DNA from: Candidatus Eiseniibacteriota bacterium
GTDB lineage: Bacteria; Eisenbacteria; RBG-16-71-46; JABDJR01
NCBI GenBank assembly: GCA_963783375.1
Contig: CAWANH010000029.1
Coordinates: 160,001 to 224,000, forward strand
Length of the DNA: 64,000 nt
Direction of reading: 5' to 3'
Shown: positions 39,018 to 57,627 of the stretch, in pieces
Layout: each line of letters begins with the position of its first letter
Numbering within the stretch: position 1 is the stretch's first letter
Notes under the pieces: model-generated
What the model saw: the letters and a program-made list of their open reading frames with translations, nothing else
What the model was told of the DNA's origin: nothing
Databases searched by the model: none
Translations under genes and position numbers: made by a program

Positions 39018-39590
39018 CTACCGGTACAGCGCCTTCACGCGGCCCCAGGTGGTGGACTCGGCGGGCACCGGACCCGCGGGCGCCGTCACTCCGGCGTCGG
39101 ATCCCGAAGTGGAAACGGCGTCGTAGTTCTGGGAGCCGGGGAGTGCGGGGCACCCCCAGGTGAAGTCCACCGAGAACGCGGTTTCACAAGAGCTCTGGGC
39201 TACGCGGGCCGCGGTGACCAGGGTGCGGAACCGCATCCGCCAGTTGTTGTCCGGGGCGGTGGGACCCACCTGGGTCGCGGTCCAGCTGGCGGGGGCCGAG
39301 GTTCCGGTGAGACTGGCGCAAAGCACGTTGTTGGAGTTGAAGAAGACGTCGAGCTCGCGGATGCCGGTGGAGAATCCGACATTGCAGAGTTCGTAGGTGT
39401 ATCGCCACTGGTTGGTGCCGGGCTGGTCCCCGCCGGCCGGGAACGGATCGCCGGCACCGTACTCAACCCAGCTGCCGCTCTCGTAGTGGAAGAGATGATA
39501 GGTGACGCCGGTCTGCTGGGCGACGGCCGAAGCGGCCGGGATCGCTCCCAGGGCCATCGCCAGGACCAGGGTCGTTAGCCGGATCTTCAT
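39018..39590 (-). CDS. Secreted beta-rich protein with C-terminal PVPAESTTWGRVKALYR tag
   Basis: GGAGGAGG RBS, Sec signal peptide (ASAVA|QQ), C-terminal TWG motif. Confidence 0.8.
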   Translation of the reverse strand: MKIRLTTLVLAMALGAIPAASAVAQQTGVTYHLFHYESGSWVEYGAGDPFPAGGDQPGTNQWRYTYELCNVGFSTGIRELDVFFNSNNVLCASLTGTSAPASWTATQVGPTAPDNNWRMRFRTLVTAARVAQSSCETAFSVDFTWGCPALPGSQNYDAVSTSGSDAGVTAPAGPVPAESTTWGRVKALYR

Positions 39591-39682: not shown

Positions 39683-41257
39683 CTATCTGGCCAGGAGCAG
39701 CTTCTGGGTGAAGACGCCGCTCTCCCCGGTCAGGCGATAGAAGTAGAGCCCGTTGGCCAGCGCGCGCCCGTCGGCCGCGGTGCCGTCCCAGCGCACGGTG
39801 GTTTCACCGGCGGACACGATCCCGTCCACCAGGGTTCGCACCCTCCGTCCCTGGACGTCGAAGATGTCCAGGCGCGCCGCGCCCGTCTCAGAGGTCCGGA
39901 ACCGGATCTGGGTGCCGGCGGCCCGCACCGGGTTCGGGAAGTTGGGGAGGAGCTGGGTGTGGTCGGGAAGCCGCGCGATGTCGACTCCCGGGGACCCGTA
40001 GGTGTAGTTGGGGGTCGCGGGCGGGATGAGTCCCGCCGCCACCATGTGGCCGTTGTTGATCTCGTCGGCGATGGTCTTGGCGGTCTCGTCGTTGGCCGAG
40101 TTGCCGTCCGCGATCAGGTCCCAACAGTAGGTGACGGCCTGGGACACCGTGGAACCGTCCGAGCTGATCACCTGGTCCTGGCCGATCCCCAGGGACACCA
40201 CGTTGAGCAACAGGGCCATGAGCTGCTGCCGGGCCCGAAGCTCCATCTTCTTCCCGCCGTGGACGGTGAGGATCTCCTGGGCGGTCTCGAGCTTGGTGGT
40301 GGCGTCGGTGGCCGCGGCGAGGGCGTAGACGCCGACCGGATGGACCGGGTTCTCGGCGAAGTGGGCGGTGATGGCGTCCAGGTAGCCGAGGAACGTGGAG
40401 TAGGGAACCTGGGCCTTTCCCTTGCCGACCAGCCACGCGTTGGCCTGGTGCTTCCAGTAGCCGATGGTTCGGGGTGAGTTCTCGGCCTCCTGGCAGGCCA
40501 GGGCCGCGTCGACCGACTGGCCCTGGGTCGCGGACAGGTCGCCCGGATCCTCGTAGCCGATGGGGGTGGAGAGGCTCACGGAATAGGTGCCGGGGGGCAG
40601 GTTCTCGAAGGAGTAGCTCCCGTCGGCGGCGGTGATGGTGGAGGCCACCAGTTCGTTGAGGGAATCATAGAGGTCCACCACCACCGGGGAGAGCGGCAGG
40701 CCGCTGCAGTCCGAGGTGATCACCCCGCTCACCGGCGGGAAGTTGACCTCGACCACCGTCGAGCGCCCTTCGTGGGCGTAGCCGTCCAGCGCCTCGAAGA
40801 ACTGGTCGCCGGGGATGCCGGATCCCTTCCATAGGAAGGTCACCGAGAATCCGGTCCGGGTCTGCCCGGGAAGGATCGCGCCCGACCCGCTGGCGTTGAA
40901 GAAGTCGACCACCCAGGGGTTGGGATCGGGATCCTCGAACACGTCCGCGGTCCAACCCGAGGGGCCGGCAGCGCTGCCGGAGAACCCGACGGAGTTGTTG
41001 AAGTCGGTGTTGTCGCCCAGAAAGACCACGCCGCTGTCGGGGTCGCTGTCGAAGAAGACGAGGAGCTCGATCACCGACGGGGTCACCGCGTTGTTGGTGA
41101 GGCTGTAGTCGTACCGGTAGATCGAGGTGGACCCGGGTCCGGGGCCGACGTAGGTGAGGGTGGCCTCCAGGGTTGCGTCCTGGGCGGAAGCGATGCAGGG
41201 AAGCGCCACGAAAACCAGCAGGGCAAGCGCGATCCACGCGCCGGGGCGGCGAAGCAT
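39683..41257 (-). CDS. Secreted multidomain protein: N-domain paralogous to 39018-39590, SdrD-B/carboxypeptidase-regulatory-like domain, helical TIGYWK domain, C-terminal FlgD-Ig/T9SS-CTD-like domain
   Basis: AAGGAGG RBS with ATG at 41257; signal peptide ASA|Q; T.ADGSYSF.NL.PGTY; NFPNP..IFDVQGRRVRTL..WDG..G.YFYRL..KLLL. Confidence 0.82.
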   Translation of the reverse strand: MLRRPGAWIALALLVFVALPCIASAQDATLEATLTYVGPGPGSTSIYRYDYSLTNNAVTPSVIELLVFFDSDPDSGVVFLGDNTDFNNSVGFSGSAAGPSGWTADVFEDPDPNPWVVDFFNASGSGAILPGQTRTGFSVTFLWKGSGIPGDQFFEALDGYAHEGRSTVVEVNFPPVSGVITSDCSGLPLSPVVVDLYDSLNELVASTITAADGSYSFENLPPGTYSVSLSTPIGYEDPGDLSATQGQSVDAALACQEAENSPRTIGYWKHQANAWLVGKGKAQVPYSTFLGYLDAITAHFAENPVHPVGVYALAAATDATTKLETAQEILTVHGGKKMELRARQQLMALLLNVVSLGIGQDQVISSDGSTVSQAVTYCWDLIADGNSANDETAKTIADEINNGHMVAAGLIPPATPNYTYGSPGVDIARLPDHTQLLPNFPNPVRAAGTQIRFRTSETGAARLDIFDVQGRRVRTLVDGIVSAGETTVRWDGTAADGRALANGLYFYRLTGESGVFTQKLLLAR

Positions 41258-41581: not shown

Positions 41582-42754
41582 GTGTCGTCATTGTCTGCAC
41601 CCCCCGGGGGGCCCACCCCCGGCGCCTCGTCCCGGTCTCTCACCCCCCTCATGCTCCGGCGGCTGGAGCGGGCGGGGCTCGAACGGCTCGGCGGGAAGGT
41701 CCGGGCGGGCGAGCGCCTCGACTTCGAGGACGGGGTGGCCCTCTACGCCGCCCCCGACGCCGCCGCGGTGGGCATGCTGGCCAACCTGGCCCGGGAGCGC
41801 CTCCACGGCGACCGGACCTACTTCGTCCGGAACCGCCACCTGAACCCGACCAACGTCTGCGAGGCCGACTGCCTCTTCTGCGCCTTCAAGGCCGATCCCG
41901 GCGATTCCTCGGGATGGACCCTGGGCAAGGCGGCCATCCAGGAGCGGATCCGGAAGCTCATCACCGACGACGTGCGCGAGGTGCACGTGGTGGGGGGGCA
42001 CAACCCCGAGGTGGGCTACGACTACTTCGTGAACACCATCCGCTGGATCAAGGAGGTCCGTCCCGAGGTCCATGTCAAGGCCTACACCATGGCCGAGATC
42101 TTCTTCTTCTCCCAGATCTCGGGAAAGACGATCGAGGAGGTGGTGGCCGACCTCAAGGCCGCCGGCCTCGACGCCTGCACCGGGGGCGGGGCGGAGATCC
42201 TGGGCGAGAAGATCCGGAAGAAGATCGTCCGCGGAAAGGTGGACGGCGCGGGGTGGCTCGAGACCGCCCGCCGCGTTCACCGGGCCGGGGTGAAGTCCAA
42301 CTGCACCATGCTCTACGGCCACATCGAGAAGTCCGAGGACCGGGTGGATCATCTCCTGAGGCTCCGCGGGGTCCAGGACGAGACGGGGGGGTTCCAGGCC
42401 TTCGTCCCTCTCGCCTTCCACAACCAGAACAACCGCCTCCGCAAGCTCGATCCCCCCACCGGCATCGACGACCTCAAGAACCTCGCGGTGGCGCGGTTGA
42501 TCCTCGACAACGTCCCCCACATCAAGGCCTACTGGCCCATGCACACTCCCAAGCTGGCCCAGACCGCGCTCTGGATGGGGGTGGACGACGTGGACGGAAC
42601 GGTGGTGGAGGAGCACATCTACCACATGGCCGGCGCCCGCACCGACCAGGAGATGTCGGTGGAAGCCCTGGTGGAGATGATCCGCCGGGCCGGCCGGCTG
42701 CCGGTGGAGCGCGACGCCCTGTACGCCACGGTGCGGGAGTACCCCGAGCCGTGA
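41582..42754 (+). CDS. mqnE: Aminofutalosine synthase (radical SAM); start could be 41651
   Basis: NPTNVCEADCLFCAF, EVHVVGG, GGGAEI, TMLYGHIE and HIKAYW. Confidence 0.92.
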   Translation: MSSLSAPPGGPTPGASSRSLTPLMLRRLERAGLERLGGKVRAGERLDFEDGVALYAAPDAAAVGMLANLARERLHGDRTYFVRNRHLNPTNVCEADCLFCAFKADPGDSSGWTLGKAAIQERIRKLITDDVREVHVVGGHNPEVGYDYFVNTIRWIKEVRPEVHVKAYTMAEIFFFSQISGKTIEEVVADLKAAGLDACTGGGAEILGEKIRKKIVRGKVDGAGWLETARRVHRAGVKSNCTMLYGHIEKSEDRVDHLLRLRGVQDETGGFQAFVPLAFHNQNNRLRKLDPPTGIDDLKNLAVARLILDNVPHIKAYWPMHTPKLAQTALWMGVDDVDGTVVEEHIYHMAGARTDQEMSVEALVEMIRRAGRLPVERDALYATVREYPEP

Positions 42755-43551
42755 GCGCGCGGCGACTCCGGGTGGGGGTGGTCCGGTTCACCAACACCCT
42801 TCCCCTGGCCACCGGCCTGGAGGAGCACCTTCCCCAGGCGGAGCTGATCCGCACCACCCCGGCGGAGATCGCCGACCGGCTGGAGTCGGGGGAGATGGGG
42901 GTGGGGCTGGTTCCGGTGGCCTCGGTGGCCGCCCACCCGAGCTGGTCGGTGGTGCCGGGGCTGGGGATTGCCGCCGAGGGCCCGGTCCGCTCGGTGCTCC
43001 TGCTCTCACGGGTTCCGGTGGAGGAGATCCGGGTGCTGGTGGCCGATCCGGCCTCGCGCACCTCCAACGCCCTGGCCCGTCTGTGGCTTCGCCACCGCCT
43101 GGGCCGGGAGGTGGAGATCACCCCGGGAGCGCCCACCCTGGACGAGCGCCTGGCCGGTCACGACGCCACCGTGGCCATCGGCGACGACGCGCTGTTCTGG
43201 GACGGCGAGGCGCGGGAGCGGATCGATCTCGGGGGGGCGTGGACGGCCTGGACCGGGCTTCCCTTCGTGTTCGCGGTGTGGGCGGGGCCCGAAGCGGGAA
43301 CCCCCGAGCTGGCCCGCGCCTTTCACGCCTGCTACGAGGCCAACGCCTCCCGCGCGGCCGAGCTGGCCGGGGGGGCGTCGCCGGACGATCCCGAGCGGGC
43401 GGCGGTGATCGCCTCCTATCTTCGCGAGAGCATTCGCTACCGGCTGGGGGAGCGGGAGCGCGAGGGGCTCCTCAGGTACATTCAACTGGGTCGCGAGGCG
43501 GGGCTGTTCGTCCCGCGGCCCCAGGGGACGCTCAATGCCGACCTCCACTGA
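42751..43551 (+). CDS. mqnA: Chorismate dehydratase
   Basis: GTG at 42751; V.FTNTLPL, GPVRSVLL, SRTS, IGDDAL and TGLPFVFAVW. Confidence 0.92.
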   Translation: MSARRLRVGVVRFTNTLPLATGLEEHLPQAELIRTTPAEIADRLESGEMGVGLVPVASVAAHPSWSVVPGLGIAAEGPVRSVLLLSRVPVEEIRVLVADPASRTSNALARLWLRHRLGREVEITPGAPTLDERLAGHDATVAIGDDALFWDGEARERIDLGGAWTAWTGLPFVFAVWAGPEAGTPELARAFHACYEANASRAAELAGGASPDDPERAAVIASYLRESIRYRLGEREREGLLRYIQLGREAGLFVPRPQGTLNADLH

Positions 43552-44647
43552 AGCCCCGATCCGGGACCTGGACCTCGAGGCGCGCATCACCGCCGGCCGG
43601 CGCATCTCCGAGGAGGACGCGCTCCGGCTCATGGAACGCGCGGAGCTGAACTGGCTCGGCGCCCTGGCCCATGAGGTGCGCTTCCGCATGAACCCCGAGC
43701 CCCGGGTGACCTACAACATCGACCGGAACATCAACTACAGCAACATCTGCACCGCCCGCTGCCGGTTCTGCGCCTTCTACCTTCCCGAGACCTCCCCCCA
43801 CGGTTACGTCCTCACCTGGGAGGAGATGCGGGAGAAGATCGCCGAGCTGAGGGCGATCGGGGGGAACCAGGTCCTCCTCCAGGGCGGGCTCCATCCCGAT
43901 TTCACCGTGGAGTGGTACGAGGGGATGATCCGGCGGATGAAGGCGGAGTTTCCCGGGCTCTGGGTGCACGCGTTCAGCGCCCCGGAGATCGTGGCCATCG
44001 CCGGGCTCTCCGGGCTCTCCTATCGCGAGACCCTGGAGCGGTTGAAAGCGGCCGGGCTCGACTCCATGCCCGGCGGGGGCGCGGAGATCCTGGTTTCCCC
44101 GGTCCGGGACGAGATCGCGGTGGGGAAGTGCAACGGCGAGGAGTGGATCGAGGTGCACCGCCAGTGCCACCTTCTGGAATTGCCCACCACCGCCACCATG
44201 ATGTTCGGGAGCCTCGAGTCGACCGCCGACCGGATCGGCCATCTGAAGATGCTTCGCGACCTTCAGGACGAAACCGGGGGCTTCACCGCGTTCATCGCAT
44301 GGCCGTTCCAGCCCGACCACACCTCGCTCAGGAAGCGGGTGCCGCGTCCGGCAACCGCGGCGGAGTATCTCCGGGTCCAGGCGGTGGCGCGGATCTATCT
44401 CGACAACGTCCCCCACGTGCAGTCCTCGTGGGTGACCATGGGGGAAAAGATCGGCCAGCTGGCCCTCTTCTACGGGGCCGACGACTTCGGGAGCGTCATG
44501 ATGGAGGAAAACGTGGTCTCCGCCGCCGGCACCACCTACAACCTCGACGAGGAGCGGATCCGGCGGGCGGTGGAGCGGGCGGGCTTCACCCCGGTCCGTC
44601 GGGGCATGCGCTACGACCTCCTGGAGGAGGAGGCGGTCCCCGCGTAG
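43535..44647 (+). CDS. mqnC: Cyclic dehypoxanthine futalosine synthase (radical SAM)
   Basis: DRNINYSNICTARCRFCAFY, LLQGG, TATMMFG, QSSWVT and GSVMMEENVV. Confidence 0.94.
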   Translation: MPTSTEAPIRDLDLEARITAGRRISEEDALRLMERAELNWLGALAHEVRFRMNPEPRVTYNIDRNINYSNICTARCRFCAFYLPETSPHGYVLTWEEMREKIAELRAIGGNQVLLQGGLHPDFTVEWYEGMIRRMKAEFPGLWVHAFSAPEIVAIAGLSGLSYRETLERLKAAGLDSMPGGGAEILVSPVRDEIAVGKCNGEEWIEVHRQCHLLELPTTATMMFGSLESTADRIGHLKMLRDLQDETGGFTAFIAWPFQPDHTSLRKRVPRPATAAEYLRVQAVARIYLDNVPHVQSSWVTMGEKIGQLALFYGADDFGSVMMEENVVSAAGTTYNLDEERIRRAVERAGFTPVRRGMRYDLLEEEAVPA

Positions 44648-44652
44648 GAACC

Positions 44653-45537
44653 ATGGAGACGACCTCCGGCGGGGGGATGGCGGAACGCGTGCTGACCTTC
44701 GGGCACATGGTCCGCTTTTCCCATTCGGTCTTCGCCCTTCCTTTCGCGCTCTCCGGAGTGCTCTTCGCCATCCACCGGATCGGCTTCTGTCCCGGCCCCA
44801 TGGTCTGGCTCTGGGTGGTGGTGGCCATGGTAAGCGCCCGCTCGGCGGCCATGGCCTTCAACCGGATCGCGGACCGCCGGCTCGACGCGGCCAACCCCCG
44901 CACCCGGAACCGGGAGATCCCCCGCGGGGCCATGAGCCTTCCCACCGCGTGGGCGTTTACCCTCGGCGCCGGCGCGGTCTTCGTCTTCGCCTGCGCCATG
45001 CTGAACCCCCTCGCCCTGGCCCTCTCCCCGGCGGCCCTGGCCATCGTGGCGTTCTACTCCTTCACAAAACGCTTTACGTGGTCCAGTCATCTCTTTTTGG
45101 GTCTTGGGCTTGGGGTTGCTCCGGTCGGGGGGTGGGTGGCGGTGGCCGGCCGCCTCGACGCGGCCCCGTTCCTGGTCGCGGCGGGGGTGATCGGGTGGGT
45201 GGCCGGGTTCGACGTGTTCTACGCCCTCCAGGACCTGGAGTTCGACCGGCGGAGCGGCCTCCACTCCATTCCCGCTCGATTCGGCCCCCGCGGCGCGGTC
45301 ATCGCGGCGCGGATCCTCCACGCCGTCGCGGTGATCGCCCTGGCCTCGGTCTACCTCGCGCTGGACCTTTCTCCCTGGTACCTTGTCGGGATGGCGGTCA
45401 TCGCGGGGTTGCTCTTCTACGAACACCGGCTGGTCCGGACCGACGACCTGAGCCGGATCGACAAGGCGTTCTTCGACATGAACGCGGTGATCAGCGTGGT
45501 GTATCTCGTCACCGCGGTGGCGGGGACCCGGCTGTGA
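44653..45537 (+). CDS. UbiA-like polyprenyltransferase of the futalosine pathway
   Basis: HSVFALPFA, RSAAMAFNRIADRRLDAANPRT, YSFTKRFT and FD..YALQD. Confidence 0.92.
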   Translation: METTSGGGMAERVLTFGHMVRFSHSVFALPFALSGVLFAIHRIGFCPGPMVWLWVVVAMVSARSAAMAFNRIADRRLDAANPRTRNREIPRGAMSLPTAWAFTLGAGAVFVFACAMLNPLALALSPAALAIVAFYSFTKRFTWSSHLFLGLGLGVAPVGGWVAVAGRLDAAPFLVAAGVIGWVAGFDVFYALQDLEFDRRSGLHSIPARFGPRGAVIAARILHAVAVIALASVYLALDLSPWYLVGMAVIAGLLFYEHRLVRTDDLSRIDKAFFDMNAVISVVYLVTAVAGTRL

Positions 45538-45580
45538 TCCGGGCGTCTCGCGCCCCCCGGCGGGAAGACGGGAGCCCACG

Positions 45581-46199
45581 GTGAGCGCCCGGCGCATCGT
45601 GCTCGCGGTGACCGGAGCCAGCGGCGCGGTCTACGCCGAGCGTCTTCTCCGGGCCCTTCTCGTCGACGGCCACGCCGTGGACCTCGTGGTCTCGGCCTAC
45701 GGGGCGCGGCTCCTGAAGGAGGAGCGCGGTCTCCCCGGGGAGCCGCGGAAACTCGCCGAGGCGGTGTGCGCGCGCTACGACCTCGGGGAGGCCGCCGGCC
45801 GGGTGACCGGGCACGGTAACCAGGACCTGGGGGCCGGAATCTCCAGCGGCTCCTTCCCGGTTCACGGGATGGCGGTGGTGCCGGCCAGCATGCGCACCAT
45901 CGGCGCGACGGCGGCGGGGCTCGGCGCGACCCTGATCGACCGCGCGGCCATGGTGACCTTGAAGGAAGCGGCGCCCTCTGGTGCTGGTCCCCCGGGAGAC
46001 GCCCCTGAGCCGCATCCACCTCGAGAACCTCCTCCGCCTCCACGACGCCGGCGCGGTCATCCTCCCCGCCGACCCCGCGTTCTACCAGCGGCCGAAGACC
46101 TTCGAGGACCTGGGGGACTTCATCGCCGCCCGGGTCATGGAGCAGCTGGGCATCCCCCCCTCCCGGGACCTCTTCCCCCGGTGGGGGTTGGGGGAGTGA
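45581..46199 (+). CDS. ubiX: Flavin prenyltransferase UbiX; +1 frameshift near 45964-45969
   Basis: [19 protein letters not shown] and RAA.VTLKE in frame 45581; LVPRETP and P.FY.RP in frame 45981; removing one A gives [12 protein letters not shown]. Confidence 0.9.
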
Positions 46200-46206
46200 C
46201 CCCGGG

Positions 46207-46941
46207 GTGGCGGGCGCGTTGAGCGCGGAACGGCCGGGGGGAGAAAGCGCCGAGGCCTCGGCGCAGAAGCGGCGGGTCCGGGGGATGTTCGACGCCGTCG
46301 CCCCCCGATACGACCTCCTGAACCATCTCCTGAGCCTGGGGATCGACCGGCGGTGGCGGAAGCGCGCGATCGCCGCCCTCGAGCTTCGCCCCGGCGCGCT
46401 GGTGCTCGACCTCTGCGCCGGGACCGGCGACCTGGCCCTGGCCGCGCTGGCCGGGGCGCCGGGGGTGCGGGTGATCGGGGTGGACCTGGCCCGGGAGATG
46501 CTCGCGCGCGGGAGCCTGAAGCGCGCGGGAGGGCCGTTGCTCTTCGTCCAGGGGGACGCGGAGCAGCTGCCCCTGGCCGACCGCTCGGTGGATGCGGCCT
46601 CGGTGGGGTTCGGGATCCGGAACGTGGCCTCCCTCGGCGCCGCCTTCGCGGAAACCGCCCGTGTGCTCCGGCCGGGCGGGCGCTTCGCGGTGCTGGAGTT
46701 CACCACCCCGCCGAACCCGGTGTTTCGCGGGCTCTACCACGCCTACTTCCACCGGGTGCTGCCGGCGGTGGGGGGCATGGTGAGCGGACGGCCCGAGGCC
46801 TACGCCTACCTGCCCGAGTCGGTGGCGCGGTTTCCGGACCCGCCGGCCCTGGCCCGTCTGGCCCGGGAATCCGGCTTCCGGGAAGCGACCTGGGAACTCC
46901 TGAGCGGCGGGATCGCCGCGCTCCACGTGTGCCGGCGGTGA
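46207..46941 (+). CDS. menG: Demethylmenaquinone methyltransferase (UbiE/MenG)
   Basis: MFDAVAPRYDLLN, DLCAGTGD, FGIRNV, LEF and AY.YLPESV. Confidence 0.92.
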   Translation: MAGALSAERPGGESAEASAQKRRVRGMFDAVAPRYDLLNHLLSLGIDRRWRKRAIAALELRPGALVLDLCAGTGDLALAALAGAPGVRVIGVDLAREMLARGSLKRAGGPLLFVQGDAEQLPLADRSVDAASVGFGIRNVASLGAAFAETARVLRPGGRFAVLEFTTPPNPVFRGLYHAYFHRVLPAVGGMVSGRPEAYAYLPESVARFPDPPALARLARESGFREATWELLSGGIAALHVCRR

Positions 46942-51348: not shown

Positions 51349-52200
51349 ATGATGACACGCTACATGTTTCTCCTCGCCACGTTGATCCTGGGCAGCGTCG
51401 TGCTTGGGGTGATCGCCCCCCCCGCGGCGGCCCAAACCTGCAACGTCAGCGGCGTCAAGATCGTCGCCCACATCTCGAGCACCGTGACCAAGTCCCCCTG
51501 CATCTACCCCGCGTCCGGAGTCACCGGGTTCGGGTGCTCCCCGACCCAGGCCTCCAGCCTGGTCACCTCCGGCGACCTGAACACGGAGTACCAGGTGTAC
51601 CTCATGGCGGTCGACGTCCCGGTACTCCAGGGTCTGGCCCGGATCGAGGTCGGCCTGGACTACGACGGGGTGGACAACCAGGGGGTGGACATCCTGAGCT
51701 GGACGCTCTGCGCCGATCAGGGCCAGGACCTGAACGGCTGGCCGGCCAGCGGGAGCGGCATGGAGTTCTCGTATCAGGGTTGCGCGGACACCACCGCGGA
51801 TCCCACCGATCCGGAGGGGGACGCCGGGGCGCTCCTGGGAGTGTTCAACCTGATCGCCTACTCCCCGGACCGACTTGCCGTTCACCGGCTGGACTACCGG
51901 TCCATGCCGCTCCTCAGGTACACCGATTGTACCGCCACCGAGTACTACCTCCTGGACGGCAACTTCGGGTACGCCTCGTTCTCCGCGTCGGCGAGCGCCT
52001 ACGGGTCCGACCCCTGCAGGGTCGTGGTGGACTACATTCCCGGGATCTGCTGCTATCCCGACGGGTCCTCCGGATCGGCCTACGAGTTCTGCTGCACCGC
52101 CGCGGGAGGCGTCTTCATTCCCATGGGGAGCGGTGAGACCTGCGCCACCCCGGTGGAGCGCGACACCTGGAGCCGGCTGAAGGACCGCTACCGGGACTGA
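51349..52200 (+). CDS. Secreted Cys-rich protein with C-terminal TPVERDTWSRLKDRYRD tag
   Basis: AAGGAGG RBS, signal peptide AAA|Q, GICCYPDG..CCTAAGG Cys module, TW.R.K tail. Confidence 0.8.
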   Translation: MMTRYMFLLATLILGSVVLGVIAPPAAAQTCNVSGVKIVAHISSTVTKSPCIYPASGVTGFGCSPTQASSLVTSGDLNTEYQVYLMAVDVPVLQGLARIEVGLDYDGVDNQGVDILSWTLCADQGQDLNGWPASGSGMEFSYQGCADTTADPTDPEGDAGALLGVFNLIAYSPDRLAVHRLDYRSMPLLRYTDCTATEYYLLDGNFGYASFSASASAYGSDPCRVVVDYIPGICCYPDGSSGSAYEFCCTAAGGVFIPMGSGETCATPVERDTWSRLKDRYRD

Positions 52201-52261: not shown

Positions 52262-52337
52262 GCGACCCTAGCTCAGTTGGTAGAGCACGTGACTGAAAAT
52301 CACGGTGTCCCCAGTTCAATTCTGGGGGGTCGCACCA
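52262..52337 (+). tRNA. tRNA-Phe (GAA)
   Basis: Acceptor stem GCGACCC/GGGTCGC, anticodon arm CGTGA-CTGAAAA-TCACG, TTCAATT T-loop, encoded CCA. Confidence 0.97.
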
Positions 52338-53596: not shown

Positions 53597-53672
53597 GCTG
53601 GTGTAGCTCAGCCGGTAGAGCAACGCACTCGTAATGCGTAGGTCAGCGGTTCGATTCCGCTCACCAGCTCCA
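53597..53672 (+). tRNA. tRNA-Thr (CGT)
   Basis: Acceptor stem GCTGGTG/CACCAGC, anticodon arm ACGCA-CTCGTAA-TGCGT, TTCGATT T-loop, CCA. Confidence 0.97.
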
Positions 53673-57529: not shown

Positions 57530-57627
57530 GGAGACGAATGGGTCCTGGTGGGCCCCGAGGACTTCAAATCCTTCAGTCGGGCGCTGATACCGTCCGGGGT
57601 GGGTTCGATTCCCACGCGTCTCCGCCA
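57530..57627 (+). tRNA. selC: tRNA-Sec (UCA)
   Basis: Anticodon arm GAGGA-CTTCAAA-TCCTT; 6-bp D-stem GGGTCC/GGGCCC with 4-nt loop; long variable arm; 8/5 acceptor/T arrangement (8th pair A.G); G73 then CCA. Confidence 0.93.

Follow-up and report, generated by a model that had tools for sequence, protein, structure and literature searches.

A 17-residue TWG tail on unrelated signal-peptide proteins of Eisenbacteria: a probable, uncatalogued envelope tag

We identified a short tail, hereafter the TWG tail, that ends 73 reading frames of an Eisenbacteria genome on bodies falling into 46 similarity groups, and that very probably is a real addressing or anchoring tag of the cell envelope of some kind. 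It is an uncatalogued, phylum-wide tag and a member neither of any CTERM family nor of the T9SS CTDs. Its consensus of 17 residues is [VT]-P-[VT]-E-x-[TS]-[TS]-W-[GS]-x-[ILV]-K-x-x-Y-x, with [TS]-W-[GS]-x-[ILVM]-K-x-x-Y as core; the tryptophan stands mostly nine residues from the end, and only 7–8 residues follow it in most proteins. Because three exact assembly-duplicate pairs occur among the 73, the number of distinct tails is 70. Our preferred reading, which we hold tentatively, is that the tail is an uncleaved peptide that would dock non-covalently on a conserved partner in the envelope and so hold small domains at the outer cell surface.

As the original prediction had it, two signal-peptide proteins encoded in the window (the whole 64,000-nucleotide stretch of DNA analysed here) end in the same tail (Table 1) and have dissimilar bodies, which belong to separate similarity groups. 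The PV pair they were said to share was not upheld, as the two pairs are out of register and the aligned upstream element is [VT]-P-[VTA]-E at W-7 to W-4. The body of the 190-aa protein was modelled as all-beta by AlphaFold2 from the single sequence (pLDDT 64.5); it has no Pfam or NCBIfam match and no Foldseek match at E ≤ 1e-3, and its best VIA match (Z 6.0) is generic. Its tail has a pLDDT <50 and lies outside the modelled fold, and the tail W and K are invariant in its 24 homologs. The N-terminal domain of its upstream neighbour is homologous to this body (BLASTP 30%, E 1.5e-6; phmmer E 7.6e-9), and the CTD of that neighbour matches TIGR04183 with 48.4 bits and also PF18962 and PF13860. The start of the 283-aa protein is supported by a database protein identical over 283 aa. 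Its model (pLDDT 72.8) has the cohesin 2vo8 as top Foldseek match (E 2.8e-6), and among the 38 matches at E ≤ 1e-3 every one listed contains a cohesin. This protein is one of ten tailed members of its cohesin-fold family in the genome, which also includes tailless members and one CTD-bearing paralog (C29:1372-2442, E 1.3e-5).

Table 1. Coordinates of the TWG-tail proteins of the window, their parts and the CTD-bearing neighbour.
Feature	Position in window	Strand	Description or basis
190-aa protein	39018..39590	-	Signal peptide, single beta-sandwich domain of no named family, TWG tail
TWG tail and stop codon of the 190-aa protein, PVPAESTTWGRVKALYR	39018..39071	-	Sequence; PSSM 44.5 bits; alignment
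Predicted Sec signal peptide of the 190-aa protein, ~24 aa	39519..39590	-	Sequence inspection and heuristic, not SignalP
524-aa upstream neighbour, same strand as the 190-aa protein gene	39683..41257	-	T9SS type A CTD in place of the tail
T9SS type A sorting domain of the 524-aa neighbour	39695..39940 (C29:199695-199940)	-	TIGR04183 match
283-aa protein	51349..52200	+	Signal peptide, cohesin-fold domain, small Cys-rich segment, TWG tail
Predicted Sec signal peptide of the 283-aa protein, ~28 aa	51349..51432	+	Sequence inspection and heuristic
TWG tail and stop codon of the 283-aa protein, TPVERDTWSRLKDRYRD	52147..52200	+	Sequence; PSSM 37.5 bits

Other genes of the window include a type IV pilus cluster that comprises pilin genes and a secretin gene (7991-32805, +), a gene run that by its sequences looks like the futalosine menaquinone pathway (41651-46941, +), and genes for tRNA-Phe (directly after the gene of the 283-aa protein), tRNA-Thr and tRNA-Sec (52262-52337, 53597-53672 and 57530-57627, all +).

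The genome (4.73 Mb, 69% GC, 97% complete) had 3,675 genes called in our analysis. A profile of 68 seed tails gave 77 matches above 14 bits, 73 of which were retained (at least 16 bits and at most 22 residues from the stop), some of these loci being fragments of frameshifted or cut genes. Two of the four dropped matches lie far from the stop, one of them in the N-terminal case C28:1279421 described below, and two are low-scoring. The pattern [ST]W[GS]x[VILM]K occurs 90 times in 54,368 six-frame segments, 74 times within 22 aa of the stop as compared with 11.9% of positions; in called genes, 66 of 68 matches are this close to the stop (4.8% of positions), and shuffling the last 40 residues left 0–1 matches in each of 20 shuffles. 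The shortness of the motif is the sole point in favour of a chance similarity or of a tail that merely closes a folded domain common to all carriers. Positional enrichment near the stop, the shuffles, the 46 body groups and the position of the tail outside the modelled folds refute this explanation, to which we give practically no weight. Nothing recurrent matched 56 isolated tails in NCBIfam (TIGR02595 included), Pfam or the PDB, whereas a genuine PEP-CTERM protein encoded by this genome was detected, and a whole-protein domain scan of 53 tail proteins (52 of the 73 plus one variant) placed no Pfam or NCBIfam model over the tail itself. No description of the motif was found in full-text searches, most subscription papers and supplements lying outside their scope.

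Tail proteins are enriched in signal-peptide-like starts, which were called with a heuristic and not with SignalP: a lenient rule found them in 60 of 73 tail proteins versus 181 of 600 controls, and a strict rule applied at called starts in 45 of 66 versus 631 of 3,609 others. The motif is neither rare in the genome nor equally common in cytoplasmic proteins or at internal positions, and it is not the end of a known domain, the outcomes that would have refuted a sorting tag. Three tail proteins are lipoproteins. The source names, where given, are 'hypothetical', and the median length is 221 aa versus 692 aa for CTD proteins. Above cut-off, the bodies match choice-of-anchor models E, V, W and X, and matches to PepA- (PEP-CTERM) and ScyE-like models stay below it; lamin-tail, X25, Big_5, beta-helix, cupredoxin and phosphoesterase domains were also found. 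The choice-of-anchor domain CAA is described as a surface domain that takes LPXTG, PEP-CTERM or T9SS anchors (bioRxiv 10.1101/2023.03.06.531300), a meaning that we extend to E, V, W and X from the model names. In composition, tail bodies, with little Arg (2.1%) and an acidic character, follow CTD cargo and depart from the remaining signal-peptide proteins, a control that includes heuristic false positives: 60 of 60, 91 of 93 and 435 of 542 bodies, respectively, are acidic, with median net charges per residue of -0.077, -0.057 and -0.025.

Twelve of the 73 tail bodies, and a thirteenth from BLASTP, have a paralog with a T9SS type A CTD, both window proteins being included. Since the bodies take choice-of-anchor, PepA- and ScyE-like models and have CTD paralogs, the tail appears to take the place of an anchor. 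No phmmer match linked PEP-CTERM bodies to tail bodies in this genome, and in other lineages no swap with PEP-CTERM was seen among the 120 homologs listed, of 227, of one choice-of-anchor W protein. Tail genes near CTD genes (8/67 versus 266/3281) show no real enrichment. A tail preceding a CTD was found neither in 98 CTD-like proteins of this genome (best PSSM score -2.9) nor in 123 metagenome matches of a sister variant, a small and pattern-limited sample, and none of 17 short CTD frames inspected was a stand-alone carrier of signal peptide plus CTD.

The range that had been suggested for the tail, Eisenbacteria, Krumholzibacteria and Latescibacterota, proved accurate. The profile has matches in 147 of 151 genomes of the Eisenbacteria phylum, often at least 54 per genome, and in 76 of 81 genomes of the Krumholzibacteriia/Latescibacterota group. 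In the Gemmatimonadota-titled group it matched 0 of 80 sampled genomes, with one match in the seed genome. One Eisenbacteria family (f5) has just 0–5 tails per genome, on three families labelled by inspection and BLAST to this genome as lamin-tail-like (homolog C3:207447), choice-of-anchor V-like with CxxCH-like motifs, and EF-hand-like. Searched against 1.84 billion representatives, the profile recovered at least 1,260 clusters (50% identity) at E ≤ 0.001. Among the top 150 of these library matches, which include one false positive, the last motif lies within 15 residues of the end in 145, and the 97 bodies of at least 120 aa fall into 42 groups. A stop-free DNA pattern found at least 127 stretches with 125 distinct matches; among the matches listed, all 124 with the stop in view lie 8–17 residues from it, and W is nine residues from the end in 89 of 125. 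A sister variant that lacks the Tyr, AV-x-P-x-[GD]-K-L-x-TTWG-x-[ILM]-K, is near-terminal in 107 of 123 metagenome matches; the others mostly belong to a single methyltransferase-like family or are chance matches. In 120 homologs chosen by body similarity, W is kept in 118, G in 110, K in 120 and Y/F in 107, and W is nine residues from the end in 93. As these four positions are kept while the upstream residues vary, specific recognition of the tail is indicated.

The most informative result, and new here, is that the core also occurs at the N-terminus, at both ends and in tandem. In the protein C28:1279421-1280092 it directly follows the signal peptide, as it does in all eight family members examined (this protein and seven homologs from six other genomes, seven genomes in all; 27–78% identity to the query), 193–221 aa from the end. 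This family has a hydrophobic, Cys-rich C-terminal half and is weakly linked in the Atlas to a C8-like bacteriocin/immunity cluster (score 0.77; all Atlas leads scored <0.9). Among the top 150 library matches, two proteins carry the core at both ends and four carry it in tandem (2, 2, 4 and 5 copies, some degenerate); these six proteins share homology with the lipoproteins at C28:945968-948916 and are thus a single family, not independent cases. The claim of an extreme C-terminal tag accordingly stands for well over 95% of copies, whose spacing is tight, and fails as a strict rule. A signal that is cut and exchanged for an anchor is single-use and C-terminal, whereas a binding motif can be repeated and moved, so the N-terminal, both-end and tandem placements are easier to reconcile with a docking motif that stays uncleaved than with a signal of the sortase type. 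The occurrence of the tail on lipoproteins, which already have a lipid anchor, likewise counts against a single-use cleavage signal. The fixed spacing at the C-terminus, on the other hand, would suit recognition of a free C-terminus.

Under the docking reading, tail proteins would be exported by Sec to the periplasm and would keep the tail on the mature protein, where its near-invariant Trp, Gly, Lys and Tyr might bind one conserved receptor, tandem copies perhaps adding avidity. A surface location of the adhesin-, cohesin- and carbohydrate-binding-type domains is suggested by the cargo types and by the match in composition to T9SS cargo. Least certain are the identity of the partner and the way in which the proteins cross the outer membrane; our leading guess for the partner is a component of a motor-less T9SS (SprA with one of at least eight PorV-like barrels), and a surface-layer protein would be an equally possible partner. 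Several results weigh against docking: no partner emerged from the neighbouring genes, the most recurrent of which as a candidate reader was found at no more than 3 of 96 loci (flanks of ~1.5 kb), the PorV2-like barrel and SprA are also present in tail-free genomes, and the tail start resembles the CTD junction. Of the proposed sorting tag with a dedicated machine, the shared tag on unrelated exported proteins was confirmed and no dedicated machine was found; a processing machine in particular is weakened, as the tail is not strictly C-terminal.

An alternative that we think possible though unlikely takes the tail as a miniature T9SS signal: a PorV-family shuttle would read it, SprA would export the protein, and a PorU-like C25 sortase would cut at [TV]-[PAG]-V-E and transfer the cargo to a glycolipid. 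Besides the direct CTD swaps between paralogs and the small size of tail proteins, the gene content is consistent with this account. This genome encodes SprA, four PorV matches above cut-off (the at least eight PorV-like barrels being counted by inspection), a PorU-like/PorV operon whose PorU-like protein scores 401.7 bits against NF033707, just under the cut-off of 420, six C25 peptidases and 96 CTD matches. The motif [TSV][GA][VI][EPGD] at the CTD junction (42/95 CTD proteins versus 16/358 control windows) resembles the tail start, and the sister variant also starts with AV or PV. Short CTDs of 40–55 aa have been described (PMC11969387), as have paralogous shuttles that read different signals (PMC12618676). 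However, the +1 residue of the would-be cleavage site is Pro in 57 of 68 tails, a position for which a preference for small residues is described, and 17 residues are too short for the three-strand minimum given for PorV binding (both PMC11969387). N-terminal, both-end and tandem copies would moreover make little sense if the tail were cleaved, and SprA, PorV-like and C25 genes occur without tails.

Profiling against T9SS components, as had been proposed, gave a divided picture. SprA and PorV were found in 46/50 and 50/50 Eisenbacteria genomes, SprA in 21/22 genomes of the Krumholzibacteriia/Latescibacterota phylum, and C25 peptidases in 33/33 across both tail-bearing phyla; but tail-free Gemmatimonadota-group genomes also have SprA (27/29), C25 and a PorV2-like barrel (10/15). 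A T9SS link is therefore compatible with the data and may only reflect kinship. For the same reason the PorV2-like barrel C29:452812, one of the at least eight PorV-like paralogs, was rejected as a tail-specific reader. Family f5 was considered as a natural loss and is not discriminating, since it retains SprA (20/24), PorV (24/24) and C25 (6/6). No GldM, GldN or GldL was detected in the genome (97% complete), in a search in which no control genome passed the cut-offs. For Poribacteria, TIGR04183 proteins without detected Por structural genes are described in PMC3909097. A type II export route was also considered; the two secretins of the genome both lie in type IV pilus-like clusters by inspection.

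Several loci stood out in this survey. SprA, PorV-like barrels and C25 peptidases are common outside Bacteroidota, namely in the Gemmatimonadota-titled group and both tail-bearing phyla. The second pilus-like cluster, with its own secretin, is at C28:201061-212116 (-). The run C29:136830-153237 combines the PorU-like and PorV genes with an M6/FG-GAP protein, two unannotated barrel-like proteins of 265–269 aa, an NHL lipoprotein, a 1125-aa barrel with a short SprA-like stretch and an Omp85 gene, and thus holds candidate readers. At C29:824716-834354, a GWxTD-domain gene directly follows a PorV-family gene, together with a CTD-like protein and a TonB-dependent receptor. Both the sprA gene (C29:765039-771319) and a large cohesin/Big_5 tail gene (C28:705482-708056) are split across frames, possibly by assembly frameshifts.

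The physical properties of the tail bear on two further alternatives. The expectation that the tail lacks a membrane helix was borne out: within the last 35 aa, the maximal Kyte-Doolittle mean over 17 residues reaches 1.54 at most and has a median of 0.41 (n = 73). The expected amphipathic helix received no such support. The hydrophobic moment averages 0.34 for an angle of 100 degrees and 0.43 for 170 degrees, and AlphaFold2 made the tail helical in one window protein (residues 272-282 of the 283-aa protein) and not in the other, both with pLDDT <50. A basic Trp/Tyr helix that would bind lipid or LPS directly, without a protein receptor, is in our view improbable. It would accord with the net charge of +1.9 on acidic bodies, with W, I/L/V and Y at i, i+3 and i+7, with the helix in one model and with the flexible position and repeats, and it is at odds with a hydrophobic moment that has no peak at 100 degrees and a mean hydrophobicity of -0.095. 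Lipid binding usually needs less strict residue conservation, and the Lys in 120 of 120 homologs (a selection that allowed Arg at this position) and the near-invariant Gly are stricter than expected for it. Alternatively, a transpeptidase could join this Lys covalently to peptidoglycan or to some other polymer of the envelope, much as Braun's lipoprotein is tied to peptidoglycan through its C-terminal Lys. The invariance of the tail Lys, its near-fixed distance from the C-terminus and the tail on lipoproteins would suit such a linkage, which could work at either end; the cargo, however, is like surface proteins and unlike peptidoglycan-bound periplasmic ones, and we regard this explanation as rather remote.

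That the tail is a truncated, exosortase-processed relative of PEP-CTERM is very improbable and already largely refuted. The first residues are loosely alike (VP-x-EP[ST][ST]W versus VPEP[ST]T), cargo types are shared, and the genome has one exosortase, in an exopolysaccharide-type locus (C29:320442-345000). Against this, no tail contains PEP or a membrane helix, three true PEP-CTERM proteins (C28:184372, 906672 and 2014727, one of them adjoining a tail gene) account for the exosortase, and an exosortase was not found in 9 of 30 tail-rich genomes, several of them 98–100% complete.

Returning to the docking reading, the cohesin-plus-tail proteins may serve as adaptors through which dockerin-like partners are anchored. 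Genes of a cohesin/dockerin-like system, here in a diderm, lie at C29:1372-5139, C29:1341809-1350170, C28:272498-273901 and C29:66876-67433. Three of the four Ig/dockerin-like genes adjoin tail genes; those of the four proteins that were scanned have no Pfam or NCBIfam match, and as Dockerin_1 (PF00404) gave no match above cut-off, the dockerin-like label rests on sequence inspection. In its widest form, which we consider doubtful, the reading would describe a second peptide-addressed route of surface display in Eisenbacteria, Krumholzibacteriia/Latescibacterota and the carriers of the sister variant, in which a ten-residue motif usable at either end or in tandem is read by a dedicated shuttle of a type IX translocon that lacks the motor, and assembles dozens of small proteins per cell into a cohesin-dockerin scaffold at the surface, without a membrane helix or sortase step.

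The tag is carried by ~2% of the proteins of this genome (70 of roughly 3,675 called genes) and by at least 1,260 public clusters, and has no family library entry. With a model of it, a large part of the unannotated proteome of entire uncultured phyla could be given a likely location at the surface. The tag also raises the question of display by a signal without a membrane helix or folded CTD in the presence of SprA, PorV and PorU-like proteins and no detectable Gld motor. Because the tail peptide can be made synthetically, a search for its partner does not require a culture of the organism.

Among known systems, the T9SS type A CTD (TIGR04183/PF18962; FlgD_ig-type here) is similar to the tail in being a C-terminal tag on signal-peptide proteins, in its cargo families, which swap the two between paralogs here, in acidic cargo, in junction residues and in the encoded SprA, PorV and PorU-like genes (the PorU model just under cut-off). 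It differs in being a beta-sheet domain of 40–80 aa, whereas the tail has 17 residues, no TIGR04183 or PF18962 match, no motifs B/D/E, Pro at the junction, a possible N-terminal or repeated position and small cargo, and SprA, PorV and C25 are found without it. Tripartite CTERM signals (LPXTG, PEP-CTERM, GlyGly-CTERM, MYXO-CTERM) are defined by eight attributes in a preprint whose main text contains neither 'TWG' nor 'Latesci' (Haft, bioRxiv 10.1101/2023.06.07.544157). The tail shares six of these (1–3 and 6–8): it is C-terminal (73 loci within 22 aa of the stop), numerous per genome and has at least three near-invariant residues, and it occurs with signal peptides, on unrelated bodies (46 groups) and with homologs that bear another signal (13 CTD swaps). 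Unlike CTERM signals, it has a flexible position, no transmembrane segment and no terminal Arg-rich cluster, since it has a single Lys and its final residue varies (R at W+8 in 19/68); no cognate intramembrane protease was found, exosortase being ruled out. PEP-CTERM in particular has the PEP motif, the TIGR02595 model and an exosortase in every signal-bearing genome, none of which holds for the tail. Non-covalent envelope-binding modules such as SLH, LysM and choline-binding repeats are, like the tail, portable and occur at either terminus and in tandem, and they stay uncleaved, as is predicted for the tail; the latter is a short linear motif in a diderm host and not a folded domain, and has no Pfam, NCBIfam or PDB match. 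The cohesin-bearing members resemble single-cohesin anchoring scaffoldins such as OlpA/OlpC or ScaE, which combine a cohesin with an anchor, as is proposed for these members, and whose cohesins are among the Foldseek matches of the 283-aa protein.
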